Shown piece by piece: positions 1 through 16,455 of a DNA stretch of 20,429 bases. The translations under genes and the position numbers were made by a program. This DNA is from a virus (Duplodnaviria; Heunggongvirae; Uroviricota; Caudoviricetes). Under the pieces are notes generated by a model, which searched no databases, was not told the origin of the DNA, and saw only the letters and a program-made list of their open reading frames with translations. Where the stretch lies: positions 1 to 20,429 of the IMG/VR virus record IMGVR_UViG_3300045988_007995. One strand, given 5' to 3'. Position 1 is the stretch's first letter; the number at the start of each line of letters is the position of its first letter.

Positions 1-1
1 T

Positions 2-400
2 TCACTCACTCAAGCAGGGCTAGTTGAAGGTTTTCAGTGGGTAGATGGAAGCTTCACAGAACATATTGAACTTATTGAAAAAAGGCCACCGAATGATGTC
101 GATGTTGTGACCTTTTTTCAATTCAGTAATGGCGATAATGATGCAATCGTAATCGGTAGAAAGCCAGAGCTATTTGATCATGATTTTGTTAAGAAGGAGT
201 TTTTCGTAGATTCCTACTTCCAAGAACTTAATCTACCAAGTCATGAGCTTGTTGAAATGACTGTATATTGGTACAGTATGTGGGCACATAGACGCGATCT
301 GTCGTGGAAGGGATTTATCCAAATCCCGTTAAACCCACAACTTGATGTTGTGGCAATGACTATACTTAATTCGGCTACTACTGAGGGGGTCAAACAATGA
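2..400 (+). CDS. 5'-truncated hypothetical protein; first gene of a two-gene operon in the immunity region (rexA-equivalent position)
   Basis: Reading frame is open from the window edge to TGA at 398-400 with no internal start before the end of the frame; stop overlaps the ATG of the next gene (ATGA at 397-400). AT-rich by eye. No motif I can assign. Confidence 0.55.
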   Translation, partial: SLTQAGLVEGFQWVDGSFTEHIELIEKRPPNDVDVVTFFQFSNGDNDAIVIGRKPELFDHDFVKKEFFVDSYFQELNLPSHELVEMTVYWYSMWAHRRDLSWKGFIQIPLNPQLDVVAMTILNSATTEGVKQ

Positions 401-1326
401 ATCGTAATGATTATGTTTTCGCTCTCAGTGAGCGCGAGCAAATAAGTAATCTATTAAAAAATATGCCAACAAGTCATTCTATTAGCCGAAAAAGCTTAGA
501 AGACCGTCTGGAGAAAGTTGAGCGATTAATTTCACAAGCTGACGTTCGAGAACATGAACCTACGCATGCTGTGTTAACTTTTAGAGGCCCAACAGTAGTT
601 GGCACGCATGGCATTTCAGCAGTATTTGGAACAAAAGCTATATCTTGTTTTAATGATGCAATAGCTTACTTGGCAACCTCTTTCAATGGCCCACTTCCTG
701 CATCAGGCAAGATACCAAACATAGAAAATAATCATCTCATGATTACCGCGTCAGCCCGTGGTTCTTTCGGATTCGTACTTGAAGAGTTTAGACCTGATGC
801 TCCTCTTGAATTCGATGAAGAAACCCCAGTAGCAAAAGCTATTAATAAGGCCAGAAAAATATTTCAGGCAAGCTTGGATAATGATGATGAAGAATTGTCT
901 GATGCTATAGAAAACTTAGACTCTCGGGCCTTAGATAAAATCAGAGCATTCATTCATTATCTGCATGAAAATAAAACAGTTTTTACACTTAAAAGCCAAG
1001 GTTTTAGCATCGTTTTTAGAGAGCCAAAACAGCTTGAAGCTGTATATCAACATCTCAGCAATGATAACATTCAGCAGGAAAAAATTATTGAGAACGTTAT
1101 ATTTTTGGGAACTCTTCCTAACAAGCGCCAATGTGAATTTATAGTTTTAGGTAACACTGATATCAGAACCGCTAGCATTGACAAAGCTGTAGATGACCCA
1201 GATATTATAAACAAGCACTTAGGAAGCGTTGCAACAGCCACGTTCCTGAAAAAAACTGTTGGTAAGGGCAAGCCCAGATACACTCTGGTTTCTCGACCTC
1301 AATGGGATATTAAATCAATCGATTAG
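397..1326 (+). CDS. hypothetical 309-aa protein; second gene of the immunity-region operon (rexB-equivalent position but not membrane-like)
   Basis: 309-codon ORF, ATG overlapping upstream stop (translational coupling), followed 15 nt later by a strong intrinsic terminator; AT-rich by eye; no long hydrophobic segments, no Walker or nuclease motif I can recognise. Confidence 0.7.
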   Translation: MNRNDYVFALSEREQISNLLKNMPTSHSISRKSLEDRLEKVERLISQADVREHEPTHAVLTFRGPTVVGTHGISAVFGTKAISCFNDAIAYLATSFNGPLPASGKIPNIENNHLMITASARGSFGFVLEEFRPDAPLEFDEETPVAKAINKARKIFQASLDNDDEELSDAIENLDSRALDKIRAFIHYLHENKTVFTLKSQGFSIVFREPKQLEAVYQHLSNDNIQQEKIIENVIFLGTLPNKRQCEFIVLGNTDIRTASIDKAVDDPDIINKHLGSVATATFLKKTVGKGKPRYTLVSRPQWDIKSID

Positions 1327-1340
1327 AATGAGCCCCTTCA

Positions 1341-1368
1341 GCCCGGCCTCCGCGCCGGGTTTTCTTTT
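1341..1368 (+). terminator. Rho-independent terminator closing the immunity-region operon (tImm-like position)
   Basis: GC-rich hairpin CCCGGC-ctccgc-GCCGGG (1342-1359) followed by TTTTCTTTT. Confidence 0.75.
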
Positions 1369-1518
1369 ACCATCAGCCCGTCAAAAACACACCTAACGAA
1401 TTGTATTTATTGAATAAATATAAATCACACTTATCACATTGCGCAATTCAGCTCCTACACATCCAGACTAGCTCTGCAAAACTTTAAAAAAATAAATCAA
1501 TAGTAAAAACATGCACAT

Positions 1519-1581
1519 AACCATTTGCGGTAATATTTTATCTCTAGCGGTGTTGACGAAAATACCTCCGGCGGTGATACT
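1519..1581 (+). promoter_or_regulatory. Lambda-type OL3-OL2-OL1 operator triplet overlapping a PL-like sigma70 promoter (rightward in this window)
   Basis: Three 17-bp sites AACCATTTGCGGTAATA (1519-1535), TATCTCTAGCGGTGTTG (1539-1555), TACCTCCGGCGGTGATA (1563-1579) with 3-bp and 7-bp spacers; -35 TTGACG (1553-1558), 17-bp spacer, -10 GATACT (1576-1581). By recollection each operator differs from lambda OL3/OL2/OL1 at only 1-2 positions and the downstream transcript start region (acacatcagcaggacgc) is lambda-like. Confidence 0.8.
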
Positions 1582-1626
1582 AAACACATCAGCAGGACGC
1601 TGGAAGCTAAATGGAACAGACTGGCA

Positions 1627-1673
1627 GGCTCTTTAAACAACGTCGACTCTCGACTACGTGGCTGAAAAGCCAG
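1627..1673 (+). promoter_or_regulatory. candidate nutL site (boxA plus boxB hairpin) in the PL leader
   Basis: boxA-like GGCTCTTTAAACAA (1627-1640) about 40 nt downstream of the predicted PL start, followed by small hairpin TGGCT-GAAA-AGCCA (1659-1672) with a GNRA-type loop; lies between PL and the N-like gene. Confidence 0.5.
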
Positions 1674-1770
1674 ATCACCCAACCACATAAGCTGTGGGAT
1701 GCAATGCCGAAGCAACCGTCTCAGGAGGAGCTTCGAGATTGCATCACCAAAGTTTATTCGGGAGGAATCT

Positions 1771-2043
1771 ATGTCCAGAAAAACAGAATTTAAAGGCACC
1801 TCAGCTTCTCGTCGTAGAGCTCGTCGCGCAAACCTGCAAAGTCAGGAGGCGATTAGCTCCGACAAGCTACACAGACCAACCCCCTCTCGAGTGGTCTTGC
1901 AATGCAAGCGCAAACCAGCAATGAGAGCAGAAGTAATAACACTGACAACGTTGACCAGAAAATATGAAGGCTCAACTTGTCTTCCAAATGTAGCTCTTTA
2001 CGCGGCAGGCTACCGGAAATCCAAACAACTGACAGCAAGATGA
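1771..2043 (+). CDS. N: N-like transcription antitermination protein (arginine-rich motif)
   Basis: ATG at 1771 preceded by GGAGG (1761-1765); N-terminal arginine-rich motif GTSASRRRARRANLQSQ resembling the ARM of lambdoid N proteins; first gene downstream of PL and nutL. The longer ORF from 1699 lacks an RBS and overlaps the leader. Confidence 0.7.
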   Translation: MSRKTEFKGTSASRRRARRANLQSQEAISSDKLHRPTPSRVVLQCKRKPAMRAEVITLTTLTRKYEGSTCLPNVALYAAGYRKSKQLTAR

Positions 2044-2104
2044 CTTGTGTTGGTCGCCAGAAAATGAAATTAGGCAGCAAACCACTTATTTGAGAGGAAT
2101 TAAT

Positions 2105-2728
2105 ATGTCATCAATCCGCTTAACTACGAGAATGAAAGAGAAAATCGCTCGTAACGCTTTAATTAAATCTGGGGTTTTCACTGAGCTTGAAGAAGTAACA
2201 AAGTTAAAGAACCAGCTTGCACTTGACGCCAGAGTTGTTGCGTTTGGCGGTAAAAAGAAAACTGAGGAAGTGGATCAGTTATCATCCAAGTTAATGGCTA
2301 TAAGCGAAGAACTTGAAAAGCTGGGATGTTCATTTTACTCATGCGATGCCCGTTCAACTTCAATTTATCTGACTGTATCTGGCAGAAGGGTTGGCTGGTA
2401 TTCATATGGGAAAGACGGCAACGGCGAAGATATATTGCTCCCTACTCCGACCAAAGATAAATGCATGTTTAGCGCAGAACACGAAATAACAAAAAGGTTT
2501 GATGAAATCTGCGCATTGCAACAAAAACTTGAAGCCAAGAAAAAGGATATCGAATCAAATGTATGGGCTGCTTTGAACTCAGTCACAACAGTTAAGCGAC
2601 TTATTGAAGTTTGGCCTGAAAGCAAAGAGTTGCTACCAAAAGAAGCAGATAAAGCAAGTACAGCACTTCCTGCTTTACGGGTAGAAGATTTGAATAAGAT
2701 GATTGGACTTCCTTCCGAGGTCGCATAA
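2105..2728 (+). CDS. hypothetical 207-aa protein (AT-rich insert between N and the tL1-like terminators)
   Basis: ATG at 2105 preceded by GAGAGGAA; ORF-track frame 2045-2728; AT-rich by eye; occupies the lambda ral/sieB/ea10 interval but resembles none of them to my recollection. Confidence 0.6.
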   Translation: MSSIRLTTRMKEKIARNALIKSGVFTELEEVTKLKNQLALDARVVAFGGKKKTEEVDQLSSKLMAISEELEKLGCSFYSCDARSTSIYLTVSGRRVGWYSYGKDGNGEDILLPTPTKDKCMFSAEHEITKRFDEICALQQKLEAKKKDIESNVWAALNSVTTVKRLIEVWPESKELLPKEADKASTALPALRVEDLNKMIGLPSEVA

Positions 2729-2862
2729 TCGTCCTTTATTTTTGGCATAAACAACAGAATAAACACTGCACTGTGTATTCATTCCAACGAGTGAATACAC
2801 GGAGCAATGTCGCTCGTAACCAAACAGGAGCCGACTTGTTCTGATTATTGGAAATCTTCTTT

Positions 2863-2888
2863 GCCCTCCAGTGTGAGGGCCTTTTTAT
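2863..2888 (+). terminator. intrinsic terminator (first of a tandem pair, tL1-like)
   Basis: Hairpin GCCCTC-cagtgt-GAGGGC (2863-2880) followed by CTTTTTA. Confidence 0.65.
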
Positions 2889-2902
2889 ATGCATACCAAT
2901 AA

Positions 2903-2924
2903 CGCTTCACTCGAGGCGTTTTTC
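2903..2924 (+). terminator. intrinsic terminator (second of the tandem pair)
   Basis: Hairpin CGCTTC-actc-GAGGCG (2903-2918, one G-U pair) followed by TTTTT. Confidence 0.6.
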
Positions 2925-2949
2925 GTTATGTATAAATAAGGAGCACACC

Positions 2950-3090
2950 ATGCAATATGCCATTGCAGGGTGGCCTGTTGCTGGCTGCCCTTCCGAATCT
3001 TTACTTGAACGAATCACCCGTAAATTACGTGACGGATGGAAACGCCTTATCGACATACTTAATCAGCCAGGAGTCCCAAAGAATGGATAA
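2950..3090 (+). CDS. cIII: CIII (FtsH/HflB inhibitor), truncated to 46 aa relative to lambda
   Basis: ATG at 2950 after AAGGAG; product MQYAIAGWPVAGCPSESLLERITRKLRDGWKRLIDILNQPGVPKNG matches my recollection of the first 46 residues of lambda CIII (54 aa); TAA at 3088-3090 where lambda continues. Confidence 0.8.
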   Translation: MQYAIAGWPVAGCPSESLLERITRKLRDGWKRLIDILNQPGVPKNG

Positions 3091-3196
3091 AACACTTATG
3101 GCTATCCAGACTAAATTCACTATCGCCGCTTTTATTGGCGATGAAAAGATGTTTCGTGAGGCCGTCGAAGCCTACAGAAAATGGAGGTCAAAATGA
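3083..3196 (+). CDS. kil: Kil-like FtsZ-inhibiting peptide
   Basis: ATG at 3083 overlapping the end of cIII as in lambda; product MDKTLMAIQTKFTIAAFIGDEKMFREAVEAYRKW... closely matches my recollection of the lambda Kil N-terminus; TGA at 3194-3196 overlaps the next start. Confidence 0.7.
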   Translation: MDKTLMAIQTKFTIAAFIGDEKMFREAVEAYRKWRSK

Positions 3197-3381
3197 TTCC
3201 GGTAGAACTGGCGAAAACTCCAGAGTTAAGTCGATTAAAAAGAGAATATCACATTGCTGAGGCTCGTTACTGGCGTAAAGCGGGAGATAAATCAAAGAAA
3301 CAACTTTGCTTATGGCAGGCACAAAGAGAGCGCATGAATGAGCGTGAGTTTCTTTCCTCCCCATCCGAATTACCATTCTGA
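3193..3381 (+). CDS. hypothetical small protein (62 aa)
   Basis: ATG at 3193 preceded by GGAGG (3183-3187); ATGA overlap with kil stop; sits where lambda has gam but is unrelated by eye. Confidence 0.5.
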   Translation: MIPVELAKTPELSRLKREYHIAEARYWRKAGDKSKKQLCLWQAQRERMNEREFLSSPSELPF

Positions 3382-3389
3382 GGCAAATT

Positions 3390-4070
3390 ATGGGAACTGC
3401 GACATTAATACTCGGTGAATCTGGCACCGGAAAATCAACCAGCATGAGAAATATCAATCCAGAGGAAGCAATACTTATAAAACCAATAGGCAAGCCGCTT
3501 CCATTTAAATCAAAAGACTGGCTGGCATGGGATGCCAGAGCAAAAAAAGGAACCGTAGTTACCACTGACAAATGGGACGTAATAGTTGCCGTAATTAAGC
3601 GTGCTCACGAATACGGGAAAAGAATCGTTATTGTTGATGACTTCCAGTATGTGATGAGCAATGAGTTTATGCGCCGCTCAGAAGAAAAATCGTTTGATAA
3701 ATTCACTGAGATAGGCCGCCACGCATGGGAGGTGATTAAGGCTGCACAGGATGCACCTGATGACCTGAGAGTCTATTTTCTCGCACACACCGAAGAAACC
3801 CCTATGGGGCGTGTGAAAATGAAGACTATCGGCAAAATGCTGGACGAGAAAATCACTGTCGAAGGCATGTTTACTATAGTTCTTCGCACCCTTACCCGCG
3901 ATGACCAGTTCTTTTTCACCACGAAAAACAACGGTGCAGACACTGTTAAATCCCCAATAGGAATGTTTGATTCCAATGAGATTGATAACGATCTCTCTTT
4001 CGTCGATGCCACTGTTTGTGATTACTACGGCATCAATAATGTTCATCAAATTAAGGAAAACGCCGCATGA
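3390..4070 (+). CDS. P-loop ATPase, Sak4-like / RecA-family recombination protein
   Basis: Walker A GESGTGKST near the N-terminus and Walker B-like RIVIVDD; about 226 aa; located where lambdoid phages carry the recombination module; AT-rich by eye. Confidence 0.7.
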   Translation: MGTATLILGESGTGKSTSMRNINPEEAILIKPIGKPLPFKSKDWLAWDARAKKGTVVTTDKWDVIVAVIKRAHEYGKRIVIVDDFQYVMSNEFMRRSEEKSFDKFTEIGRHAWEVIKAAQDAPDDLRVYFLAHTEETPMGRVKMKTIGKMLDEKITVEGMFTIVLRTLTRDDQFFFTTKNNGADTVKSPIGMFDSNEIDNDLSFVDATVCDYYGINNVHQIKENAA

Positions 4071-4654
4071 GCAACGTGATTTTTACTTATAACGAAGAAG
4101 CAGCACTGACCGCAGGGCAAGGTGGTTTTATTAACGAAACTGGCGCCCATATCATTACCATTACTGAAGCAGAACTAAAGAAATCAGAAAAAGGAGCCAA
4201 ATTTATTGAGTTTTCTGGAGAATCCGACGACGGACGTAAAATCCAGTATCTTAGCGTTTGTGTTCAGAAAAATGACGGAACGGAAAACAAATTTGGCGCA
4301 AATGTCGTTCACGCCATGATGGGGTGTGCCGGGATTGGACAATTAACACAGCATATGGTTTCCGCCAGTAAATTTGTTGCACCTGAATTTCATGGAAAGA
4401 AAATCGGGTTAGTGCTCCAGAAAGTATTAACCACAAACAAAAAGACTGGCGCAGACAGCTACCAGATGGAAATACGCATCCCGTTTATTGCACAAACAGG
4501 TCAAACCCTTAAAGAAAAGGCAGAAGGCAAGCAACCAGAAACTATCGCCGACATGGTTGCCAGCCTCAAAGATAAAGACAATCGCTCTAAAAACGTAAGC
4601 CAGAATCATGCAGATGATTATGGTTACAGCCAGAACGATTACCCTGCTTTCTGA
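4067..4654 (+). CDS. putative phage single-strand DNA-binding protein partner of the Sak4-like ATPase (DUF669-type is a guess)
   Basis: ATGA overlap with upstream ATPase gene; 195 aa; C-terminus ...DDYGYSQNDYPAF resembles an acidic SSB-type tail; family assignment is from recollection of Sak4-SSB gene pairs only. Confidence 0.5.
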   Translation: MSNVIFTYNEEAALTAGQGGFINETGAHIITITEAELKKSEKGAKFIEFSGESDDGRKIQYLSVCVQKNDGTENKFGANVVHAMMGCAGIGQLTQHMVSASKFVAPEFHGKKIGLVLQKVLTTNKKTGADSYQMEIRIPFIAQTGQTLKEKAEGKQPETIADMVASLKDKDNRSKNVSQNHADDYGYSQNDYPAF

Positions 4655-4677
4655 TTACTGAAAATAAGGCTCCCATT

Positions 4678-4974
4678 ATGCCAGCGCCTCTGTATGGTGC
4701 GGATGACCCGCGCAACTGCTCCGGTAGCTCCAAGGCGGAGGTGCTGGAGAATATCAAAAACAATTTCGACGCGTTTCTTGCTCTGACACCAGAAACAAAA
4801 GCAGAACGGATGTACCGACGCGATATACAACTCGCGCTAAAACAGGAGAAGGACCGAACAAACGAAACAGCAATGAGACCGTTGCGAAAAGCGACAATAG
4901 ACAAATTCCCTGAATATATCGACCCGCGCCTGCGTAATTACCGCTCACGTTATGGTGCTATCAGTAATGACTGA
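4678..4974 (+). CDS. hypothetical protein (98 aa)
   Basis: ORF in series with flanking plus-strand genes; weak RBS; no recognisable motif. Confidence 0.45.
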
Positions 4975-4984
4975 GGAATTTACC

Positions 4985-5149
4985 ATGAGAGGACTTGCAT
5001 ACAATCCCGGCATTCTTCCGGCAGAAATGATTATTCGCCAACGCGTAAAGCCAATGCCATCGAGAGAGGAATTGCTTAAGAGAAATTCTTTTCCGTCAGT
5101 GAATCAAAACAAATATCTGAATGCGATGTTGCGGAGTGGGAAGAAATGA
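4985..5149 (+). CDS. hypothetical small protein (54 aa)
   Basis: ATG at 4985 preceded by GAGGAA (4974-4979); ORF-track frame 4952-5149; stop overlaps next start (ATGA at 5146). Confidence 0.4.
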
Positions 5150-5691
5150 AACAAATGTCACTAATTGAGATGGATGGATTCCTGAAAGGTAAATGCATCC
5201 CAAGCGATTTAAAGGTTAACGAAACAAACGCTGAATATCTGGTGCGTAAATTTGCTGAAGCGGAGGCCAAGTGCGCGGCGCTGGCGGCGGAGAGTGCGCT
5301 GGCTCGTAAGGCAGTTCAGGCATTCTGCGATGTTGTTGGCGACAACACCGAGGTTATCTGTGAGGCGGTTGGGAGAGATGGCGTTCTGGTTATTTTGGAG
5401 GCCATGAAGGCAACAGGAAATATGTCAGCCACCGACGCTTTCCTGGCTGAAATACGTGCGGAGGCACGCAACGAGGGGATTAACTACACCGCAAGCCGTC
5501 TTGCTGCTGCGTTCAATCACGGATTTATCAATAAGTCTTTGCGTGAAGTTTTCGACGTTACACGCATGATTTTGTCAGCGAAAGAAGAGTTGGCTAATGA
5601 ACCGCATCCGATTGATGGCCTGTCCGGTGAATATGCGGAGAAATCCCTTGAAGAATGGGCGGAACAGATTCGCAAAGGAGGCAACCAGTGA
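5146..5691 (+). CDS. hypothetical protein (181 aa)
   Basis: Complete ORF, translationally coupled on both sides (ATGA at 5146, GTGA at 5688); Ala-rich; no motif assigned. Confidence 0.55.
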
Positions 5692-6323
5692 GCAAGATTG
5701 ACTATCAGGCACTGCGTGAGATAGCAAAACAGGCAACACAAGGCGAATGGGTCGCATTTATTTCGTCTGGTACTGGTACGTATGCGGTGCATACGCCCGG
5801 TGATGAACGATGTGAAGACGTTATCAAATGGACCGGCTTTGATGGACAGAAAAACGCAGAGAACAACGCCCATTATATCGCAGCTTTCAACCCTGAAGTA
5901 GTGCAGGCATTACTGGATGAACTGGAAGCCAAAGACAAAGCATGGTCCGCTCAGGACAACCATATCAACCAGCTGGCTGAACGAATTGAATCGCTGGAGA
6001 AGAAGAATGGCGAGATGGGAAGATCGCTGGAAGCCGCAGAGAAGCGCATAGCAGAACTGGAAGCACGGGAAATAAAACCAGCCAAAGGCGAAGTTCTTGT
6101 CGTTGTATCTGGTTTTACTGGTTGCGGGAAAAGCGCCATTGCCGGGGAAATAGAAATTGCGATGAAAGCTATTGGTGTGTCGGTTCAGTGGACTAATGGC
6201 GATGCGGAAAAGCGCATGACAGGAGCTGACTGGCTGACAGCGATTGAGATGTACAAACCAACTGTGCGCATCGTGGAAGTTAATGTGCCACGCGCCGCAG
6301 GCATTCGCATCAAAGGAGAGTGA
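5688..6323 (+). CDS. Ead/Ea22-like family protein (coiled-coil)
   Basis: GTG at 5688 preceded by AAAGGAGG; N-terminus [21 protein letters not shown]... and central heptad-like segment (LEAKDKAW...IAELEAR) match my recollection of lambdoid Ead/Ea22-like proteins. Confidence 0.6.
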   Translation: MSKIDYQALREIAKQATQGEWVAFISSGTGTYAVHTPGDERCEDVIKWTGFDGQKNAENNAHYIAAFNPEVVQALLDELEAKDKAWSAQDNHINQLAERIESLEKKNGEMGRSLEAAEKRIAELEAREIKPAKGEVLVVVSGFTGCGKSAIAGEIEIAMKAIGVSVQWTNGDAEKRMTGADWLTAIEMYKPTVRIVEVNVPRAAGIRIKGE

Positions 6324-6324
6324 T

Positions 6325-7272
6325 ATGACCACTATTACCAAAGAGCGACTGCTGACAATCAGGCAGTGGCGCGAAACATACGGACCTGGTAGCAACGTTG
6401 TACTGCCAGCAGAAGAAGCGGAAGAACTGGCACGAATTGCTCTGGCATCGCTGGAAGCAGAGCCGATAGGTTTCCGTTGCAGGCGCAATGATAACCTTGG
6501 TGATTGGAGTTACGTATATCATCGAGAGCCAGATGATTTTGAGCGCAAACATTTAGTGATAGAGGGCATTTACGCCGCCCCTCCAGCACCGGTAGTGCCT
6601 GAAGAAGCAACTCCGGAAAACGTAGAAATGCTCTCTGGCTATGTTTCAACGTACAAATTAACCGATAGCGAGCGCGATATTGCTGCCGAAATATGGAACG
6701 CCTGCCGCGCCGCCATGCTTCAGTCCGGAAACTTTCGGGAAAACAAGAATTCGTCAACCAATAATTTTCGGGAAATCGCGGAAACGTCAACCAACTATCC
6801 GGCAATTCCTAGTGAGGTGTTGTCCGCAATCCTGAAGGTTGCCAGGATTCGTGCCGATTTCGATGATTTTGACGGTGACAGGCGAGGTATCGGTGATTGT
6901 CTGGATGAGGCTGAGCAAGAGCTTATCGTTACCATTAACAAATATGCCAGTCAGTTGGCAGCAGAACCTATAGCGCCTAATGACGTTCGAGAGCAGACAG
7001 CCATTCCACAAGTTCCGGTAACTCCGGATGGTTGGATAAGCTGTAGTGAGCGAATGCCAGAAATGGGAGAGCGACAATGCTATGTGTTAGCTGCTGACTT
7101 TAAAAACAACTACCTACCAAGCATCCCCAACACTCAGGTCGGCGTATATGGCGACTGGTTTAATGATGGCAAGCCCACTTGGGATGACGGTGGTGGCGAA
7201 GACCTGTATCTCAAGGAGGTAACCCACTGGATGCCGCTGCCAGAACCGCCGCAGGAGGTTAACCGTGGCTAA
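6325..7272 (+). CDS. DUF551-domain protein
   Basis: ATG at 6325 after AAGGAG; C-terminal segment DGWISCSERMPEMGERQCYVLAAD...THWMPLPEPP has the pattern of the DUF551 domain common in lambdoid early regions. Confidence 0.6.
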   Translation: MTTITKERLLTIRQWRETYGPGSNVVLPAEEAEELARIALASLEAEPIGFRCRRNDNLGDWSYVYHREPDDFERKHLVIEGIYAAPPAPVVPEEATPENVEMLSGYVSTYKLTDSERDIAAEIWNACRAAMLQSGNFRENKNSSTNNFREIAETSTNYPAIPSEVLSAILKVARIRADFDDFDGDRRGIGDCLDEAEQELIVTINKYASQLAAEPIAPNDVREQTAIPQVPVTPDGWISCSERMPEMGERQCYVLAADFKNNYLPSIPNTQVGVYGDWFNDGKPTWDDGGGEDLYLKEVTHWMPLPEPPQEVNRG

Positions 7273-7546
7273 CCTGCAACTTGCCGTTAAAGGTGAATAC
7301 TTCGATGCCATGATTCGCGGAGAGAAAACGGAAGAGTATCGCCTGTGTAATGACTACTGGAATAAGCGAATTATGTTCCGCGAGTATGACCGCCTGATTA
7401 TCACAAAGGGATATCCGAAGCGCGACGATTCCAGCCGCAGAATTGACGTCCCGTATGACGGATATGAAATCAAGACAATCACACATCCGCACTTCGGCGA
7501 TAAGCCGGCAAAGGTGTTCGCGATAAAGGTGAATATTGATGGCTAA
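7265..7546 (+). CDS. small PUA-like (ASCH/DUF3850-type) protein, tentative
   Basis: GTG at 7265 preceded by AGGAGG (7251-7256); 93 aa; YFDAMIRGEKTEEYR pattern reminiscent of ASCH/DUF3850 proteins (recollection only). Confidence 0.4.
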   Translation: MANLQLAVKGEYFDAMIRGEKTEEYRLCNDYWNKRIMFREYDRLIITKGYPKRDDSSRRIDVPYDGYEIKTITHPHFGDKPAKVFAIKVNIDG

Positions 7547-7841
7547 ATCAGCAGCAGAGCGCAAAGCCGCTCAGAGAGCCAGACAAGCTGCATCTGGTGT
7601 GCGTAAGCTGGAAATTGTGCTTGATGCTCAGGAAATTGAAATGCTGGAGCGTAACTGTGCCACGCGTCGCCCCGGGCGTGCGCCTTACGAATTTGGTGAG
7701 TATATAGCGTTACTGATCCGCCAGGATGATGCACGCGTGCACGGGCGTATAAAATCGATCAGCAGAAACGTTGCGGTAAGTGCGGCGAGAGAGTTCCCGT
7801 TAATTCATGCCCGTGTAATGGTGACTCGGAATGCTGGGTGA
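7539..7841 (+). CDS. hypothetical basic protein (100 aa), last gene before the packaging module
   Basis: ATG at 7539 after AAGGTG, overlapping previous stop; Arg/Ala-rich N-terminus; no HNH or other motif seen. Confidence 0.5.
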   Translation: MAKSAAERKAAQRARQAASGVRKLEIVLDAQEIEMLERNCATRRPGRAPYEFGEYIALLIRQDDARVHGRIKSISRNVAVSAAREFPLIHARVMVTRNAG

Positions 7842-7871
7842 CTAAAGGCTGGCATGAAACGAAATTAATAG

Positions 7872-7885
7872 CGTGACATGTCACG
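7872..7885. repeat. perfect palindrome CGTGACATGTCACG (copy 1 of 3 of the GTGACATGTCAC core)
   Basis: Exact dyad symmetry read directly; same 12-bp core recurs at 10138-10149 and 10531-10542. Confidence 0.9.
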
Positions 7886-7925
7886 AGTAGATTATGCATG
7901 ATGAATTTGATGGGTTTTGAATACT

Positions 7926-7951
7926 GCCGCCAACTATGGCGGCTTTATTTT
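7926..7951 (+). terminator. intrinsic terminator between the early operon and terS
   Basis: Hairpin GCCGCC-aactat-GGCGGC (7926-7943) followed by TTTATTTT. Confidence 0.7.
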
Positions 7952-7958
7952 GCATGGT

Positions 7959-7987
7959 ACTATTACCACAACGGTAACTATTACCAC
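7959..7987 (+). repeat. two exact 11-bp direct repeats ACTATTACCAC immediately upstream of the terS start
   Basis: Copies at 7959-7969 and 7977-7987 (18-bp period), ending 8 nt before the predicted terS ATG. Confidence 0.85.
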
Positions 7988-7994
7988 GGTGGTT

Positions 7995-8591
7995 ATGATG
8001 CCTGCTGAACCTAAAACCTATAAACGCAAATCAACGCAATTTAAGCCACTAACAGCAATGCAGGAGGCTTATTGCCAGTCATACATCAAAACGCCTGAAA
8101 ACCAGACTCAGGCAGCGATTAACGCAGGATTCTCCCCAAATACAGCGGCAGTTAAAGCCAGTCTCATGATGCGCGATGAACGCATTCAAAAACGGATTGC
8201 CGAGCTGATGGAAGAGCGCAACAAACGAATGCGCGTCAGTGCTGATTACGTTCTCATGCGCCTGGTGGAGATCGACCAGATGGACGTGATCGACATCCTC
8301 AACGACGATGGGAGCCTTAAGCCAATCCGCGAGTGGCCGAAAATCTGGCGCACTACGCTTAGTGGCTTTGATCTGTCATCGACCATCATGAACATGAACG
8401 AGGATTCGATAGAGACAATCCTCAAAAAAATTAAATGGCCTGACAAGGTGAAGAACCTCGAACTGATTGGTAAGCACGTCGACGTCAACGCATTCAAAGA
8501 ACGCCTGGATGTTAATGTGAATGTGACAATTGCTGATCGCATAGCGGCAGCCAGGAAGAGACTGAAAGAACGTCAGGATGGCAATCAGTGA
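7995..8591 (+). CDS. terS: terminase small subunit (P27-family-like)
   Basis: Located immediately upstream of and overlapping (GTGA) the large terminase gene; start placed at ATG 7995 (MMPAEPKTYKRK...) because the ORF-track extension from 7917 spans the terminator and direct repeats. Confidence 0.65.
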   Translation: MMPAEPKTYKRKSTQFKPLTAMQEAYCQSYIKTPENQTQAAINAGFSPNTAAVKASLMMRDERIQKRIAELMEERNKRMRVSADYVLMRLVEIDQMDVIDILNDDGSLKPIREWPKIWRTTLSGFDLSSTIMNMNEDSIETILKKIKWPDKVKNLELIGKHVDVNAFKERLDVNVNVTIADRIAAARKRLKERQDGNQ

Positions 8592-10063
8592 CAGATACAG
8601 CGTTATCTCCTGAAGAGCAGTTAATCGAGGATATTGCAGGGTTCACTCACGATCCGCTTGGCTATGCCCTCTATGCGTTCCCATGGGGGGAAGAGGGGAC
8701 TGAACTGGCACATGCCACCGGCCCACGTCAGTGGCAGGCTGATGCGTTCCGAGAGATACGTGATCACCTGCAGAATCCAGAGACGCGCTATCAGCCGCTT
8801 ATGCTGGCACGCGCTTCTGGTCACGGTATTGGTAAATCCGCATTCATCTCAATGCTGATCAACTGGGGCATGTCCACTTGCGAGGATTGTAAGGTCGTGG
8901 TGACCGCCAACACCGACAACCAGCTACGAACGAAGACCTGGCCGGAAATTATCAAGTGGTCGAACCTTGCTATCACGAAAGACTGGTTTACCTGTACCGC
9001 TACCGCGATGTACAGCAATGACCTAGGGCACGACAAGCGGTGGCGGGCTGACGCAATACCCTGGTCTGAGCACAACACCGAGGCATTCGCCGGACTACAC
9101 AACGAGCGCAAACGCATCATCGTGGTGTTTGATGAAGCGTCGAACATTGCGGATCTGGTGTGGGAAGTTGCCGAGGGTGCGCTTACGGACGAAGACACTG
9201 AGATTATTTGGGTGGCGTTCGGAAACCCTACACGTAACACCGGGCGTTTTCGCGAATGTTTCCGCAAATATAAACACCGCTGGAAAACTGCGCAGATTGA
9301 CAGCCGGACGGTGGAAGGCACTAACAAACAGCAGTTGCAGAAATGGGTTGATGACTACGGGGAAGACAGCGACTTCGTTAAAATCCGTGTGCGTGGCATA
9401 TTCCCTGATGCATCTGAATTGCAGTTTATCCCTACCGGTCTTACTGACGAGGCAATGAAACGGGTGGTAACCGCTGCGCAGGTTGCACATGCTCCGGTGA
9501 TAATCGGCGTTGACCCGGCATACTCCGGCGTTGATGACGCTGTGATATACCTGCGGCAGGGGCTACACAGTAAGGTGCTGTGGACTGGCAACAAGACTAC
9601 CGACGATCTGATTATGGCGAAGCGTATCGCTGACTTTGAAGACCAGTATCAGGCTGACGCGGTGTTCATCGACTTCGGTTACGGAACCGGTTTGAAGTCA
9701 ATCGGTGACGGCTGGGGTCGTACATGGCAACTTGTTCCGTTCGGTGGCGCGTCTACTGACCCGCAGATGCTCAACAAGCGTGGGGAGATGTTCAATTCAT
9801 GCAAGACATGGCTGAGGCTGGGCGGCATGCTGGATGACCAGGAAACAGCAGACGACCTGTCGGCGGCAGAGTACAAAGTTCGAGTGGACGGTAAAATCGT
9901 TATCGAACCGAAGGAAGATATCAAGGAGCGGCTTGGGCGTTCACCGGGTAAAGGCGATGCGCTACTGCTGACGTTTGCGTTCCCTGTGTCTAAGCGTCTG
10001 CGAATTCCCGGTCAGCAGAACCAGCAAGGCAAGGCCATCACAGATTACGATCCCTATGCTTAA
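8588..10063 (+). CDS. terL: terminase large subunit
   Basis: 491-aa ORF; GTG start overlapping terS stop; ATPase-like segment ...IIVVFDEASNI... (Walker B-like) and overall size and position typical of phage TerL. Confidence 0.85.
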   Translation: MTDTALSPEEQLIEDIAGFTHDPLGYALYAFPWGEEGTELAHATGPRQWQADAFREIRDHLQNPETRYQPLMLARASGHGIGKSAFISMLINWGMSTCEDCKVVVTANTDNQLRTKTWPEIIKWSNLAITKDWFTCTATAMYSNDLGHDKRWRADAIPWSEHNTEAFAGLHNERKRIIVVFDEASNIADLVWEVAEGALTDEDTEIIWVAFGNPTRNTGRFRECFRKYKHRWKTAQIDSRTVEGTNKQQLQKWVDDYGEDSDFVKIRVRGIFPDASELQFIPTGLTDEAMKRVVTAAQVAHAPVIIGVDPAYSGVDDAVIYLRQGLHSKVLWTGNKTTDDLIMAKRIADFEDQYQADAVFIDFGYGTGLKSIGDGWGRTWQLVPFGGASTDPQMLNKRGEMFNSCKTWLRLGGMLDDQETADDLSAAEYKVRVDGKIVIEPKEDIKERLGRSPGKGDALLLTFAFPVSKRLRIPGQQNQQGKAITDYDPYA

Positions 10064-10104
10064 TCCGCTGGTGGGGATAATGTCGTTGATATCCTCTGGT
10101 GAGG

Positions 10105-10133
10105 ATAAAACAAAGCCAGCTCATAGGCTGGCT
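10105..10133 (-). terminator. minus-strand intrinsic terminator downstream of the opposite-strand gene pair
   Basis: Hairpin AGCCAGC-ctatga-GCTGGCT followed on the minus strand by TTGTTTTAT; protects terL from antisense read-through. Confidence 0.5.
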
Positions 10134-10137
10134 GTTT

Positions 10138-10149
10138 GTGACATGTCAC
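10138..10149. repeat. palindrome GTGACATGTCAC (copy 2), 4 nt downstream of the gene A stop codon
   Basis: Exact 12-bp palindrome; flanking context CTGtTTGTGACATGTCACGGtGTTA nearly identical to copy 3. Confidence 0.9.
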
Positions 10150-10153
10150 GGTG

Positions 10154-10486
10154 TTATTTCGGTAGATTGTGTTTGGCATTCGACTCGTCTATCACGTAAC
10201 GCATTGCAGTTCGACCGAGATTACCAGGATCTTCATGCAGACTCACTCGTGCCTTTAGGAGCACACATTCAGCCTTGACATAGTTTGCTGGAATTATTCC
10301 TACCTCGGCATTTTTAAATGCCTCCTTCACCGCCTCACCGTTGTACTGACCGCCAAGCAACTCTGTACATGTCAGGTTGTTATGGATAATTGCAAGGAGA
10401 TCTTTAATCTCTTCACGCAGGTTTACAATCGCCATCGCGGCATTGATAGCTGCGGCATAGCGCTCAGCTGCAGTCTTCTCTTTCAT
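10154..10486 (-). CDS. hypothetical 110-aa protein (opposite-strand insert gene A)
   Basis: Minus-strand ORF; start placed at MKEKTAAERY... (ATG complement at 10484-10486) preceded by AAGGTGA; the only long ORF in this interval on either strand. Confidence 0.55.
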   Translation of the reverse strand: MKEKTAAERYAAAINAAMAIVNLREEIKDLLAIIHNNLTCTELLGGQYNGEAVKEAFKNAEVGIIPANYVKAECVLLKARVSLHEDPGNLGRTAMRYVIDESNAKHNLPK

Positions 10487-10498
10487 GATTTTCACCTT

Positions 10499-10525
10499 AA
10501 AAAAATGCCCGGCGAATCGGCGGGC
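10499..10525 (-). promoter_or_regulatory. conserved hairpin plus T7 tract directly upstream of gene A RBS (copy 1 of duplicated 5' element)
   Basis: Minus strand reads GCCCGCCGATTCGCCGGGCATTTTTTTAAGGTGAAAATCATG; terminator-like stem GCCCG/CGGGC then U-tract, immediately followed by the RBS. Confidence 0.5.
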
Positions 10526-10530
10526 TGATT

Positions 10531-10542
10531 GTGACATGTCAC
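10531..10542. repeat. palindrome GTGACATGTCAC (copy 3), 4 nt downstream of the gene B stop codon
   Basis: Exact 12-bp palindrome in context CTGaTTGTGACATGTCACGGcGTTA. Confidence 0.9.
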
Positions 10543-10546
10543 GGCG

Positions 10547-10969
10547 TTAGAAGGTTATTTTATCGAATGCGGCGTTGATTGCCTTGGCGTCCTGCTCAGC
10601 ACCAACCACATCAAGTAAAGATCTTTTACTAAGCACTTCAGCCAGGCATTGTAACTTCATGTTGTATAAGTTTTCGCGCATGTAATCATCATCACTTTTT
10701 TCTTTGGCGTATACAGCGCGAGAAATATCAAACACATTGCCTTTTTCCATTTCAGTTTTCTGCGCTGAAATCCAGTCATGGCAAGTAACTCCTATTCCAT
10801 GGTCATCGCTAAGCGTTAACCCGGCAAGTCGCTCACCTGGAATTGCTTCACAAAGCATTTCATTTCCTGCAAAAACACCATAAAAAATTGAGTCATCACC
10901 CTGAACAATGCGTACATATTTGCACGGCCATTCATTTAGATATTTAGCTAGCATGTCGGCTGTTTTCAT
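10547..10969 (-). CDS. hypothetical 140-aa protein (opposite-strand insert gene B)
   Basis: Minus-strand ORF; start placed at MKTADMLAKY... (ATG complement at 10967-10969) preceded by TAGGTGA; upstream ORF-track extension crosses the hairpin/T-tract and is rejected. Confidence 0.55.
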   Translation of the reverse strand: MKTADMLAKYLNEWPCKYVRIVQGDDSIFYGVFAGNEMLCEAIPGERLAGLTLSDDHGIGVTCHDWISAQKTEMEKGNVFDISRAVYAKEKSDDDYMRENLYNMKLQCLAEVLSKRSLLDVVGAEQDAKAINAAFDKITF

Positions 10970-10979
10970 GATCTCACCT

Positions 10980-11005
10980 AAAAAAAATGCCCGGCGAATC
11001 GGGCG
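10980..11005 (-). promoter_or_regulatory. conserved hairpin plus T8 tract directly upstream of gene B RBS (copy 2 of duplicated 5' element)
   Basis: Minus strand reads CGCCCGATTCGCCGGGCATTTTTTTTAGGTGAGATCATG; about 40 nt alignable with copy 1. Confidence 0.5.
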
Positions 11006-11045
11006 AACTGGAAGCAATGAGTTATGCCTTCCGTGGCTGTACTGG

Positions 11046-11085
11046 TTTACAGCATGAAGCCATCGCAATGGCGTCATGCTGTAAA
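11046..11085. repeat. 40-bp near-perfect nested palindrome
   Basis: TTTACAGCATGA-aGCCATcgcaATGGCg-TCATGCTGTAAA: 12-bp outer arms with a 5-bp inner dyad. Confidence 0.85.
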
Positions 11086-11124
11086 AAGGGCGGTGATAGT
11101 CCTTCAAGGGAAACCATCACCGCC
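11083..11124 (-). terminator. minus-strand terminator 43 nt downstream of the tRNA
   Basis: 9-bp stem GGCGGTGAT/ATCACCGCC with 18-nt loop, followed on the minus strand by CTTTTT. Confidence 0.5.
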
Positions 11125-11167
11125 AAGCCCCTGGAACTTCTGGCATCACGGTCCTTAGGCGTGATTC

Positions 11168-11244
11168 TGGCGTGGCATGCAGGATTCGAACCTGCGACCA
11201 ACCGCTTAGAAAGCGGTTGCTCTGTCCAGCTGAGCTAATGCCAC
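11168..11244 (-). tRNA. tRNA-Arg (anticodon UCU), phage-encoded
   Basis: 77-nt cloverleaf on the minus strand: acceptor GTGGCAT/ATGCCAC, D-stem GCTC/GAGC, anticodon stem ACCGC/GCGGT with loop TT-TCT-AA, T-stem GCAGG/CCTGC with TTCGAAT loop, discriminator G and encoded CCA. Confidence 0.85.
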
Positions 11245-11671
11245 AACGCTGAGAGCACTTAGCCTGTTAAGGCGCCACACTTTGTCGCGGCTCCATAAAT
11301 GCTCTCATCGTTGTACCCTCGTCTCTTCCGAGGCGTCACACCGAATCGCCGGGATGGTGAATCCCCGTGCGCGGAATAAAACCGCTCGACTTGCACATTC
11401 CGGCTACCTGGTTCGTTTGCCACAGCCAGGGAGGGTGCCCCTTAAACGTATCCAGACCGCTATCGGCGCATGTGCCATACGCCGTACTGCTCAAAATAAA
11501 AGCTCACTCCACCTGTTCAATTTAACGACAAGCCAGTCAGGTTAGTAACCGGAATGAACTCTTTGGTTACCTGAAAGGTAATAATTTGTGCGTTAAATGT
11601 CAACTACCTACGATAAATAAATCATATGTGGTTAAATTGGTAATAATTTAATTGCGTACGGAGTCATTGAT

Positions 11672-11878
11672 ATGTGCATGGGTAGCTCACCATCAGTGCC
11701 TGCAACACCAGAAGTTCAGGCAGCACCACAGGAGCAGGATGCCGCCGTTGTTGATGCCCGCGACGAAGAAACTCGTCGCCGTCGCGCTGCTGCTGGTCGT
11801 AGTTCTACGCTGCTTACCGGTTCTCAGGGCGACACATCAACCGCTAATACCAGCGGTAAAACGCTGCTTGGTCAGTAA
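11672..11878 (+). CDS. small virion-associated protein candidate (T7 gp6.7-like?), 68 aa
   Basis: ATG at 11672 preceded by GGAG; begins MC..., Ser/Pro/Ala-rich; immediately upstream of the portal gene, whose leader shares the motif CGGAGTCATTGA(t/a)ATG. Confidence 0.45.
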   Translation: MCMGSSPSVPATPEVQAAPQEQDAAVVDARDEETRRRRAAAGRSSTLLTGSQGDTSTANTSGKTLLGQ

Positions 11879-11892
11879 CCGGAGTCATTGAA

Positions 11893-13572
11893 ATGGCGGA
11901 AACAACTAAAGAGCGATTGAACAAACAGTTCGCACAACTTGAAAGCGAGCGTCAGTCGTTCGAGCCGCACTGGCGCGAGTTGAGTGATTACATCAACCCG
12001 CGTGGTTCCCGCTTTCTGACTTCTGAGGTCAACCGTAACGATCGACGCAATACACGCATTATTGATTCGACCGGGACTATGGCGGCGCGCACTCTCGCCA
12101 GCGGCATGATGTCAGGCATCACAAGCCCCGCGCGTCCGTGGTTTCGCCTGGCTACGCCAGATCCTGAAATGATGGATTATGGCCCTGTTAAGTTGTGGCT
12201 TGAGGCGGTGCAGAACCGCATGAACGATATGTTCAATAAGTCGAATCTCTATCAGTCGCTGCCGCAGTTATACGGAAGCCTCGGCACATACAGCACTGGT
12301 GCAATGGCAGTGCTGGAGGATGACGAGGACATCATTCGCACAATGCCATTCCCGATAGGCAGTTACTACCTGGCTAACTCACCTCGTGGCAGTGTGGACA
12401 CCTGTTTTCGCAAGTTCTCTATGACTGTTCGTCAGCTTGTTCAGGAGTTCGGGCTAAATAACGTCAGCGAATCCGTAAAAAGCATGTGGGAAAGCGGAAC
12501 CTACGAGAAGTGGATTGAAGTGATGCATTCGGTTTACCCGAACATTGACCGCGATACATCGAAGCTGGATAGCAAGAACAAGCCATTCAAATCGGTTTAT
12601 TACGAGGTTGGTGGCGATAACGACAAGTTGTTGCGTGAGTCCGGATTCGATGAGTTTCCAATTATGGCTCCGCGCTGGGAAGTTAACGGCGAAGATGTTT
12701 ATGGATCATCATGCCCGGGTATGCTGGCGCTTGGACCTGTTAAGGCATTGCAGCTTCTCCAGAAGCGCAAGTCGCAGTTGATTGATAAAGCCACCAATCC
12801 GCCGATGGTTGCTCCGACTTCCCTCAAGAATCAGCGTGCCTCCCTTCTTCCTGGCGACATCACGTATATCGATCAGATTACTGGTCAGGATGGTTTCAGG
12901 CCTGCTTATCTGGTTAACCCCAGTACAGCAGATTTGGTGGCAGACATTCAGGACACCCGTCAAATCATTAACAGCGCCTACTTTGTCGATCTGTTCATGA
13001 TGTTGCAGAACATCAATACCCGCTCGATGCCTGTTGAAGCGGTGATCGAAATGAAAGAAGAAAAACTTCTGATGTTGGGGCCGGTTCTGGAGCGTCTGAA
13101 CGACGAATGTCTTAATCCTCTCATTGACCGCGCTTTCTCGATGATGGTGCGTAAAAACATGCTGCCGCCACCGCCTGACGCGATGGAAGGTATGCCCCTG
13201 AAGGTCGAATACATTTCCGTCATGGCTCAGGCGCAGAAGTCTATCGGCCTGTCCAGTCTGGCGTCTACGGTCAACTTCATTGGTCAACTTGCGCAAGCGA
13301 AACCAGAAGCTCTCGACAAACTCAACGTTGATCAGGCGATCGATGCATTCGCTGATATGTCCGGAGTGTCTCCAACCGTCATTGTTCCGCAGGAACAGGT
13401 TGAGCAGGCTCGCCAGCAACGGGCACAGCAACAACAGCAGCAACAAATGATGGCGATGGGGATGGCGGCGGCACAGGGTGCCAAGACGCTAAGCGAAGCT
13501 AAAACTTCGGATCCGAGTGTTTTGTCAGCTATGGCGAATGCAGTTAGTGGTCAGGGTGGGCAATCACAATGA
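11893..13572 (+). CDS. portal (head-to-tail connector) protein, T7 gp8-like
   Basis: 559-aa ORF following terL; C-terminal Q/A/M-rich tract (QQRAQQQQQQQMMAMGMAAAQGAK) resembles the T7 connector C-terminus as I recall it. Confidence 0.8.
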   Translation: MAETTKERLNKQFAQLESERQSFEPHWRELSDYINPRGSRFLTSEVNRNDRRNTRIIDSTGTMAARTLASGMMSGITSPARPWFRLATPDPEMMDYGPVKLWLEAVQNRMNDMFNKSNLYQSLPQLYGSLGTYSTGAMAVLEDDEDIIRTMPFPIGSYYLANSPRGSVDTCFRKFSMTVRQLVQEFGLNNVSESVKSMWESGTYEKWIEVMHSVYPNIDRDTSKLDSKNKPFKSVYYEVGGDNDKLLRESGFDEFPIMAPRWEVNGEDVYGSSCPGMLALGPVKALQLLQKRKSQLIDKATNPPMVAPTSLKNQRASLLPGDITYIDQITGQDGFRPAYLVNPSTADLVADIQDTRQIINSAYFVDLFMMLQNINTRSMPVEAVIEMKEEKLLMLGPVLERLNDECLNPLIDRAFSMMVRKNMLPPPPDAMEGMPLKVEYISVMAQAQKSIGLSSLASTVNFIGQLAQAKPEALDKLNVDQAIDAFADMSGVSPTVIVPQEQVEQARQQRAQQQQQQQMMAMGMAAAQGAKTLSEAKTSDPSVLSAMANAVSGQGGQSQ

Positions 13573-13865
13573 CAGATTACGAAGACGATCAACTGAAAGA
13601 AGAAAACGCCCGTAAGCAACGTGACATGGCACAGCGTGAAATTGATGACATTTGCTTTGTCATGAGCAGTGAACAGGGGCGTCGCGTTGTCTGGTCGGTG
13701 CTGGAGAAAGGCCGTGTGTTTTCCGCTATCTCACCGATGGACGCTATGGCAATGGCATTTAATGAGGGGCAACGCAATCTGGCGCTGGAACTGTTTCAGC
13801 GCGTTATGGCGCATTGCCCTGAACAGTATTTGAAGATGGCCAAAGAGGCCAGTGAACAGGAGTGA
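13569..13865 (+). CDS. hypothetical protein (98 aa) between portal and scaffold genes
   Basis: ATGA overlap with portal stop; acidic; no motif assigned. Confidence 0.5.
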   Translation: MTDYEDDQLKEENARKQRDMAQREIDDICFVMSSEQGRRVVWSVLEKGRVFSAISPMDAMAMAFNEGQRNLALELFQRVMAHCPEQYLKMAKEASEQE

Positions 13866-13867
13866 TC

Positions 13868-14563: not shown

Positions 14564-14571
14564 GAGAGGAA

Positions 14572-15564: not shown

Positions 15565-15615
15565 CGCCTGTTATTAACCTGTGGGTCGTAACAGACCCAC
15601 TAATGGAGAAAGAAG

Positions 15616-16053: not shown

Positions 16054-16063
16054 GGTGATATCG

Positions 16064-16399: not shown

Positions 16400-16415
16400 G
16401 CCTCGCGAATCAGAC

Positions 16416-16437
16416 AAGGGGCTTCGGCCCCTTTATT
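16416..16437 (+). terminator. intrinsic terminator after the head gene block
   Basis: Hairpin GGGGC-TTCG-GCCCC (UUCG tetraloop) followed by TTTATT. Confidence 0.75.
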
Positions 16438-16455
16438 GCAGGAGTATAGAAACTT

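Follow-up and report, generated by a model that had tools for sequence, protein, structure and literature searches.

A lambda-type PL operon and Uetakevirus packaging genes meet within a DUF551 gene in a 20-kb phage contig

An early operon leading into packaging genes

How does an early operon of the lambda PL type come to run, on one strand, into the packaging genes terS and terL? The question is raised by a stretch of 20,429 nucleotides from a virus of the Caudoviricetes (positions 1 to 20,429 of IMG/VR record IMGVR_UViG_3300045988_007995), referred to here as the window. An initial inspection of its letters and open reading frames (the sequence-only reading) had described Ea22-like, DUF551 and small early genes followed on the same strand, within about 150 bp, by terS/terL, with no integrase, att or lysis cassette. 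It had proposed either T7-like colinearity under lambda-like control or a rearranged or cryptic prophage. The description was accurate. The order is ea22, DUF551, ASCH-like gene, small regulator and terS/terL, all on the plus strand, where genes follow one another without interruption from position 1 to 10063. The regulator gene (ending at 7841) and terS (starting at 7998) are separated by 156 bp, and no integrase, excisionase, att-associated or lysis gene was found anywhere in the 20,429 bases.

In a 500-bp scan along the entire window, the nearest relatives switched once and there were no other mosaic breaks. The switch falls inside the DUF551 gene, between a lambdoid left part (1-6323) and a Uetakevirus right part (6325-20429). 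The window is the whole of contig ena:ERZ812616:NODE_1865_length_20429_cov_2.818445, which contains no N and has a k-mer coverage of only 2.8x; its name is in the SPAdes style, and rank 1865 at 20 kb implies a metagenome. The genes and signals around the switch are as follows.

5688-6323, plus strand: Ead/Ea22-like gene (PF13935)
6325-7272, plus strand: DUF551 gene, 315 amino acids (aa; PF04448), holding the parental join
7265-7546, plus strand: ASCH-like gene of 93 aa, equivalent to phiV10 gp54 (phrog_625; RefSeq names homologues ASCH domain proteins)
7539-7841, plus strand: small regulator gene, 100 aa, equivalent to phiV10 gp55 and epsilon15 gp49 (phrog_536), the last gene of the early operon
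7926-7943, plus strand: strong intrinsic terminator found by a terminator scan, GCCGCCAACTATGGCGGC then TTTATTTT
7998-8591, plus strand: terS (PF03592, E 7e-30; phrog_51)
8588-10063, plus strand: terL of the Uetakevirus type (phrog_2)

The Uetakevirus part of the window

From DUF551 onward the contig is almost certainly an ordinary Uetakevirus, a temperate podovirus of the epsilon15/phiV10 type. In a megablast comparison with 50,697 phage records, the right part (from 5276 or 6325 to 20429) matched Uetakevirus at ~97-99% identity, the matches being PAS61, O157 typing phages 9 and 10, ZX5 (98.7% identical to the window), phiv142-3, TL-2011b and phiV10; Salmonella phage epsilon15 matched it at 76.6%. 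The terS/terL genes are 97.3% identical to those of phiV10 and PAS61. Over 7264-20429 the packaging and structural module keeps the gene order of the genus, from terS, terL, portal and protease to a GP7-type capsid, a Bbp16-like protein and the tail proteins, at 97-99% identity to phiV10, PAS61 and ZX5, and the ea, ASCH-like and gp55-like regulator genes stand directly upstream of terS, as they do in the genus. The cro-like, DnaT-like, P and DUF1064 genes with a divergent repressor, which belong further upstream in a Uetakevirus, are missing, and lambdoid PL genes are found there instead. Neither the ASCH-like protein nor the regulator had a Pfam match or sequence relatives in the PDB.

phiV10, PAS61, TL-2011b and the complete VR50 prophage at guaA share one map plan. 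It leads from guaA through int and a leftward early operon to the repressor, then from a cro-like gene through the DnaT-like, P and DUF1064 genes to Eae/Ea22/DUF551, and on through the ASCH gene, small regulator, terS and terL to the tailspike, which is followed by holin, endolysin, spanin and attR (in VR50 the spanin gene adjoins yfgI). In Uetakevirus the rightward early operon, on the replication side, closes with the ea genes, which border on terS; the lysis cassette and int/attP lie 17-19 kb past terS, after the tailspike and beyond the end of the contig. The last base of the window, 20429, corresponds to phiV10 position 12431; the phiV10 lysis genes occupy 24.8-26.6 kb and its int, which in the genus is of the P4 type, 26.9-28.2 kb. 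Because Uetakevirus places int, att and lysis genes after the tailspike, their absence between the early and the packaging genes is normal.

Our sample of Uetakevirus-type loci numbered 90, of which 80 came from IMG/VR and the other 10 were obtained by exact-protein look-up. Standard early genes were present in 64 of the 68 that had at least 3.5 kb of sequence upstream of terS. ZX5 lysogenises at the 3' end of guaA, with attP located 190 bp upstream of int, and releases 1e7 plaque-forming units/ml on spontaneous induction, as expected of a working temperate phage (PMC9782041). Intact relatives with the same order of ea genes and terS and a normal temperate cycle therefore exist (ZX5, phiV10 and PAS61), one of the outcomes by which the sequence-only reading was to be refuted. 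The run of ea genes into terS/terL, which that reading had set against the lambda plan, is an already known Uetakevirus layout.

The lambdoid part of the window

The left part contains the following genes and signals upstream of the Ead/Ea22-like gene.

1 to 400, plus strand: 3' part of a DUF6932 gene, in the cassette between cI and PL
397-1326, plus strand: gene of 309 aa, the second of the DUF6932 cassette
1340-1361, plus strand: intrinsic terminator closing the cI-side cassette (terminator scan; -14.6 kcal/mol, z -2.8)
1553-1581, plus strand: PL promoter, TTGACG-17-GATACT (promoter scan), overlapping lambda-like operator sequences
1629-1637, plus strand: boxA-like GCTCTTTAA, read directly, part of a proposed nutL
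1642-1654, plus strand: possible boxB-like hairpin, weak, part of the proposed nutL
1771-2043, plus strand: N (PHROG/Pfam), PL operon
2105-2728, plus strand: Nmad5 (PHROG/Pfam), PL operon
2950-3090, plus strand: cIII, PL operon
3083-3196, plus strand: kil, PL operon, followed by a gene of 62 aa
3390-4070, plus strand: Sak4-like ATPase, PL operon
4067-4654, plus strand: SSB-like gene, PL operon
4678-4974, plus strand: abc2 anti-RecBCD, PL operon
4985-5149, plus strand: DUF2737 gene, PL operon
5146-5691, plus strand: ea gene of 181 aa, PL operon

The genes upstream of DUF551 very probably form a true lambda-type cI-PL-N operon that was joined here from a parent of the torS type. The calls in the PL operon rest on PHROG matches, Pfam labels on the source contig and 99.85-99.9% identity to prophages at torS. 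Window 1-1326 is 100% identical in DNA to the torS lambdoid prophages L003, L005 and L010 (loci of our comparison are given as L numbers), in which a cI gene (S24, LexA-like) lies immediately upstream of the DUF6932 cassette. This cassette, with its 309-aa gene, occupies the position of lambda rexAB, and cI would lie just off the contig. Over 1-6473, L005 and L010 differ from the window by 8-9 mismatches (99.85% identity), and E. coli CE10 (NC_017646) is 99.92% identical over 1-5133. Looked up by exact match, the 181-aa ea protein gave ten contigs, each carrying a lambdoid (P22-like) prophage beside torS.

The operon has a PL promoter with cI operators, N, a proposed nutL, cIII, kil, recombination genes and ea genes, the nutL hairpin being weak: the boxB-like element folds at -4.9 kcal/mol (z -0.4), and 57 of 200 shuffled sequences fold at least as well. 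The operator, boxA and boxB assignments at 1553-1654 presume likeness to the OL/OR and nut sites of lambda. An ending in xis-int beside attP/attR, which the sequence-only reading had given as the rule for lambda-type PL operons, is absent from the window and present in its parents. In the 99.85%-identical torS prophages, the series from cI, DUF6932, the 309-aa gene, PL and N to abc2 and ea continues through DUF551 and AntA (or ASCH) to xis, int and torS. The Ead/Ea22-like gene is the last gene in the window purely of the lambdoid parent type, and its exact protein is known from one contig only, the source contig of the window.

The parental join within the DUF551 gene

An exact-protein look-up found the DUF551 protein of the window elsewhere on only four short metagenome contigs, L014-L017. 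Of these, L015 reaches past the regulator into terS, L014 and L016 break off in the regulator gene, and L017 in the ASCH-like gene. From 6325, L014 is 100% identical to the window over 1394 bases, to that contig's end at 7718, and L015 is 99.1% identical over 6325-7998, through the regulator into terS. To the left of 6325, L014-L016 carry an unrelated gene of 87 aa in the Ead/Ea22 position. The lambdoid loci L005 and L010, in turn, diverge from the window to the right of 6453. This leaves a minimum join zone of 129 bp (6325-6453) that is identical in the lambdoid L005/L010 and the Uetakevirus-type L014-L016. Two further lambdoid loci, L012 and L013, match window 5001-7062 with only 3 mismatches, so the shared stretch could, if the true lambdoid parent was of their kind, be up to 738 bp long (to 7062).

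The switch between the two parents lies, with little room for doubt, in this shared DUF551 stretch, at 6325-6453 and possibly extending to 7062. A window spanning a join was one of the outcomes that the sequence-only reading had named as counting against a new architecture, and it is the outcome obtained: two prophage types change over inside a single gene.

The DUF551 5' region is 99-100% identical in torS lambdoid prophages and Uetakevirus-type contigs, and in other loci Ea22, 87-aa and ASCH genes are likewise 99-100% shared between the two groups. These identities indicate that the ea region acts as an exchange zone between two otherwise unrelated groups of temperate phages.

Search for the join in other genomes

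We searched for the join with a pattern of 29 lambdoid-specific nucleotides, a spacer N{150,156} and 28 Uetakevirus-specific nucleotides. The pattern matched the window once and had no match in IMG/VR, in GTDB genomes (one per species) or in JGI metagenomes. Megablast against the 50,697 phage records and 5,426 complete E. coli genomes returned no record covering both sides. In that search a hybrid with any set of ea genes would cover ~75% of the 1-8600 query and rank first; the best matches were pure lambdoid prophages, at 65%. N, Nmad5, Sak4, SSB-like, abc2 and the 309-aa gene were found upstream in none of the 90 Uetakevirus-type loci, and an exact look-up of the 100-aa regulator gave standard Uetakevirus contexts only.

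Two other loci have a non-standard early region before a Uetakevirus module. In L032 (IMGVR_UViG_3300045988_095680), over locus positions 1-12000, genes for a cI-type repressor and a PL-side operon of the yfdP/Q/R/S type lead, all in one direction, through Ea22 and DUF551 to the regulator and terS of a Uetakevirus. Up to 7797 the locus follows an e14/KpLE1-like parent, with 99.99% identity to E. coli AST262, and from 7437 a Uetakevirus parent, with 99.7% identity to L031; the two overlap over 361 bp inside the Ea22 gene. The L032 join was found in no complete E. coli genome.

The other, L071 (IMGVR_UViG_651053022_000007; locus positions 1-10600), lies on an isolate-derived contig of 92.8 kb. 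A lambdoid PR-type region, in place of the standard DnaT/P genes, precedes its Uetakevirus regulator and terS; the region includes a DnaC-like loader, nin-type genes and an open reading frame with an HNH/RusA fusion, and in matching genomes an antitermination protein. The 92.8 kb suggest two prophages, in tandem or nested. In a scan with a conserved repressor 26-mer, the 92.8-kb contig behind L071 was not among the matches listed.

The regulator gene and the gap before terS

A strong terminator that the sequence-only reading had missed lies in the gap between the regulator and terS. The hairpin at 7926-7943 folds at -16.2 kcal/mol (z -4.96), and none of 200 shuffled sequences was as stable. 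The ends of the linear phiV10 record also map to this gap, at 7876/7877, inside the palindrome GTGACATGTCAC: phiV10 38481-39104 aligns to window 7254-7876, and phiV10 1-2282 aligns to 7877-10158.

phiV10 and RefSeq start terS at a TTG equivalent to 7917 (224 aa). Because the TTG frame runs through the terminator hairpin, the ATG at 7998 (197 aa) is the more plausible start, and the gene caller on the source contig also starts terS there.

The regulator of the window is a minority allele. An A run at 7766-7768 has three A (A3) in the window versus four (A4) in phiV10, PAS61 and L015; the shift of frame replaces a C-terminal CxxC...CxC (zinc-ribbon-like) tail and gives 100 aa instead of 112. Among 87 loci counted, 76 had A4 and 11 had A3, 10 of the latter having been picked by the look-up itself. 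We found the 100-aa allele in 264 blocks of the collection, and every context that we examined was that of a standard Uetakevirus; we therefore rejected sequencing error or prophage decay as the cause of the shorter run. By eye, the N-terminal half of the regulator looks like a ribbon-helix-helix domain.

Origin of the join

The data fit both an assembly chimera and a very recent homologous recombinant. We lean, by a little, towards an assembly chimera formed through an inter-prophage repeat in a gut sample that held both prophages. A chimera is the most likely origin because the join occurs in one contig of ~2.8x coverage and each half is near-identical to a common prophage that occurs separately (99.85-100% identity). 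The second hybrid, L032, is again a singleton metagenome contig that switches in a shared stretch. In a standard Uetakevirus, rightward early transcription leads by way of the replication genes and the ea genes to the small regulator and meets the terminator at 7926-7943 just before terS, where the phiV10 record ends map. In the chimera, a PL operon like that of the torS prophages would be joined upstream within the shared DUF551 stretch, the assembler having crossed a repeat of 129-738 bp common to two prophages of one sample. Several points weigh against this. At an unresolved repeat a De Bruijn assembler usually ends the contig and does not cross it wrongly; this contig passes through the repeat without a break or an N gap. 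The search for the join was not exhaustive, ENA and Logan contigs lying outside its DNA-level scope. Both groups share ea segments at 99-100% identity, and real recombination here must therefore occur in nature. A true single crossover through the shared DUF551/ea sequence, between a circular Uetakevirus genome or co-resident Uetakevirus prophage and a resident lambdoid prophage at torS, is the next most likely origin, if a doubtful one. It would yield a nested or hybrid prophage whose PL transcription, antiterminated by N, continues through the ea genes in the direction of the regulator and terS, and it predicts a reciprocal junction elsewhere in the chromosome, running from Uetakevirus early genes through DUF551, AntA, xis and int to torS. 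The identical 129-738 bp would serve for homologous exchange, both phage types encode recombinases (Sak4/SSB/abc2 here, RecT/RecE-like in Uetakeviruses), identical ea cassettes in the two groups show ongoing exchange, and non-standard early regions on a Uetakevirus module recur in L032 and in the isolate-derived L071. The join is nevertheless known from this one 2.8x contig and is absent from the complete E. coli genomes and phage records searched. Strain VR50 carries both prophage types, at torS and guaA, in the same orientation and 1.7 Mb apart; an intrachromosomal crossover in such a layout would need a 1.7-Mb duplication or an excised circle, and only the insertion of a circular Uetakevirus genome into the lambdoid prophage is plausible because the prophages lie in direct orientation at that distance. 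Inversion between co-resident prophages is unlikely on the same grounds. Of the rearranged or cryptic prophage that the sequence-only reading had offered as one alternative, the join of two prophages stands; that it is a rearrangement in a genome is the less likely reading, a join in one 2.8x contig being indistinguishable from mis-assembly.

It is improbable, in our judgement, that the contig comes from a viable hybrid phage in which a lambdoid immunity and early region has replaced the whole Uetakevirus early region with its functional orientation flipped. In such a phage, PR with cro, cII and replication genes would replace the leftward operon, and cI, PL, N, recombination and ea genes would replace the rightward replication operon; PL would drive the regulator and, by antitermination, the packaging genes, and L032 would be another, independently formed case. 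The strand topology fits: upstream of cI, the lambdoid parent has cro, cII and the replication genes on the opposite strand, as Uetakevirus has its leftward operon. The inferred size of ~40.7 kb (~11.9 kb lambdoid plus ~28.8 kb Uetakevirus) is within the 39.1-44.8 kb of known members, N and a boxA-like nutL element are present, and L032 has an analogous order of cI, PL-type operon, ea genes, regulator and terS. The second junction that such a phage requires, however, is not in the window and was not found, and the layout occurs in no isolated phage or complete genome searched. Both examples are singleton metagenome contigs whose halves are 99.9-100% like ordinary parents, which argues against an established lineage. 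We give next to no credence to the other alternative of the sequence-only reading, a native architecture with T7-like colinearity under lambda-like control. What speaks for it is the visual impression of major genes lying on one strand over 1-10063. Against this, each half is near-identical to a known phage type with divergent early operons, the strong terminator parts the early genes from terS, an insert on the minus strand follows terL, and none of the 90 related loci has the arrangement. Nor is there a phage RNA polymerase or other T7-like early gene among the PHROG and Pfam matches of the window. The parental mapping contradicts a T7-like architecture, and the order of ea genes and terS on which the idea was built is the standard one in Uetakevirus.

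Other features of the window

Beyond terL, the window contains a minus-strand island and then the head and tail genes.

10154-10486 and 10547-10969, minus strand: open reading frames of 110 and 140 aa between terL and portal, with no family matches
11168-11244, minus strand: tRNA-Arg(tct), within the minus-strand insert 10154-11244
From 11672, plus strand: gene of 68 aa opening the head/tail module (11672-20429), followed by portal
11893-13572, plus strand: portal, followed by Bbp19-like and protease genes
14578-15564, plus strand: major capsid, followed by a Bbp16-like gene and by tail and internal virion proteins to the contig end

The head/tail module, assigned by Pfam labels, is 98-98.9% identical to phiV10 and PAS61. 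The island at 10154-11244 carries its own terminator-like hairpins. Its content differs from one Uetakevirus to another: it is present, with the tRNA, in VR50 and in O157 typing phages 9 and 10, and is incomplete in PAS61 and phiV10.

In the left part, the full-length DUF6932 protein (gene start taken from L005:4677-5255) matches the PADLOC candidate defence family PDC-M63A (E 2e-10), and the 309-aa protein had no match in PADLOC or Pfam. The two genes may be a prophage-encoded defence or exclusion pair. Nmad5 is a putative nucleotide-modification gene directly after N, and two terminator-like hairpins (2863-2880 and 2901-2920) lie between it and cIII.

Implications

The apparent feed of a lambda-type PL operon into packaging genes is a join of two parents, most likely artefactual and at best a one-off recombinant. 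It calls for caution in reading similar contigs. Ea-type genes (Ead/Ea22, DUF551 and ASCH) at the PL-distal end of lambdoid prophages are 99-100% identical to those that close the rightward early operon of Uetakevirus, and short-read metagenome contigs can therefore switch phage there and mimic a new architecture.

If the join is real, the contig would have caught the single-crossover intermediate in the trade of ea cassettes between the two groups, and the prophage would have N-antiterminated PL transcription running towards a foreign packaging module. By analogy with lambda biology, N acting at nutL would then be predicted to carry PL transcripts past the terminator at 7926-7943 into terS. 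Such a prophage would be of interest for phage mosaicism, yet not a new kind of system.

Comparison with known systems

The window does not belong with T7-like colinear phages: it has cI-type operators and N, open reading frames and a tRNA on the minus strand (10154-11244), and no RNA polymerase gene.

The PL operon of phage lambda comprises N, cIII, kil, gam/bet/exo, ea genes, xis, int and att. The operon in the window is like it in the layout of promoter and operators, in N with a boxA-like nutL, in cIII and kil, and in a recombination module followed by ea genes. It differs in carrying Sak4/SSB/abc2 where lambda has Red recombination, and in that the lambda operon ends at xis-int-att and the one in the window does not.

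The torS P22-like prophages (CE10, L005/L010) have in common with the window everything from DUF6932 through Ead/Ea22 and the start of DUF551. They then continue from DUF551 and AntA (or ASCH) to xis, int and attR/torS, whereas the window continues into the Uetakevirus regulator and terS. L032 differs from the window in its lambdoid parent and in switching within Ea22 rather than DUF551, and is likewise a singleton metagenome contig.

Relative to Uetakevirus, the window lacks the repressor, cro-like, DnaT-like, P and DUF1064 genes, and a lambdoid cassette and PL operon fill 1-6323 instead. From 6325 to 20429 its gene order is that of the coliphage members of the genus (phiV10, ZX5, PAS61 and TL-2011b), at 97-100% identity, and the same order is found in epsilon15 at 76.6% identity.

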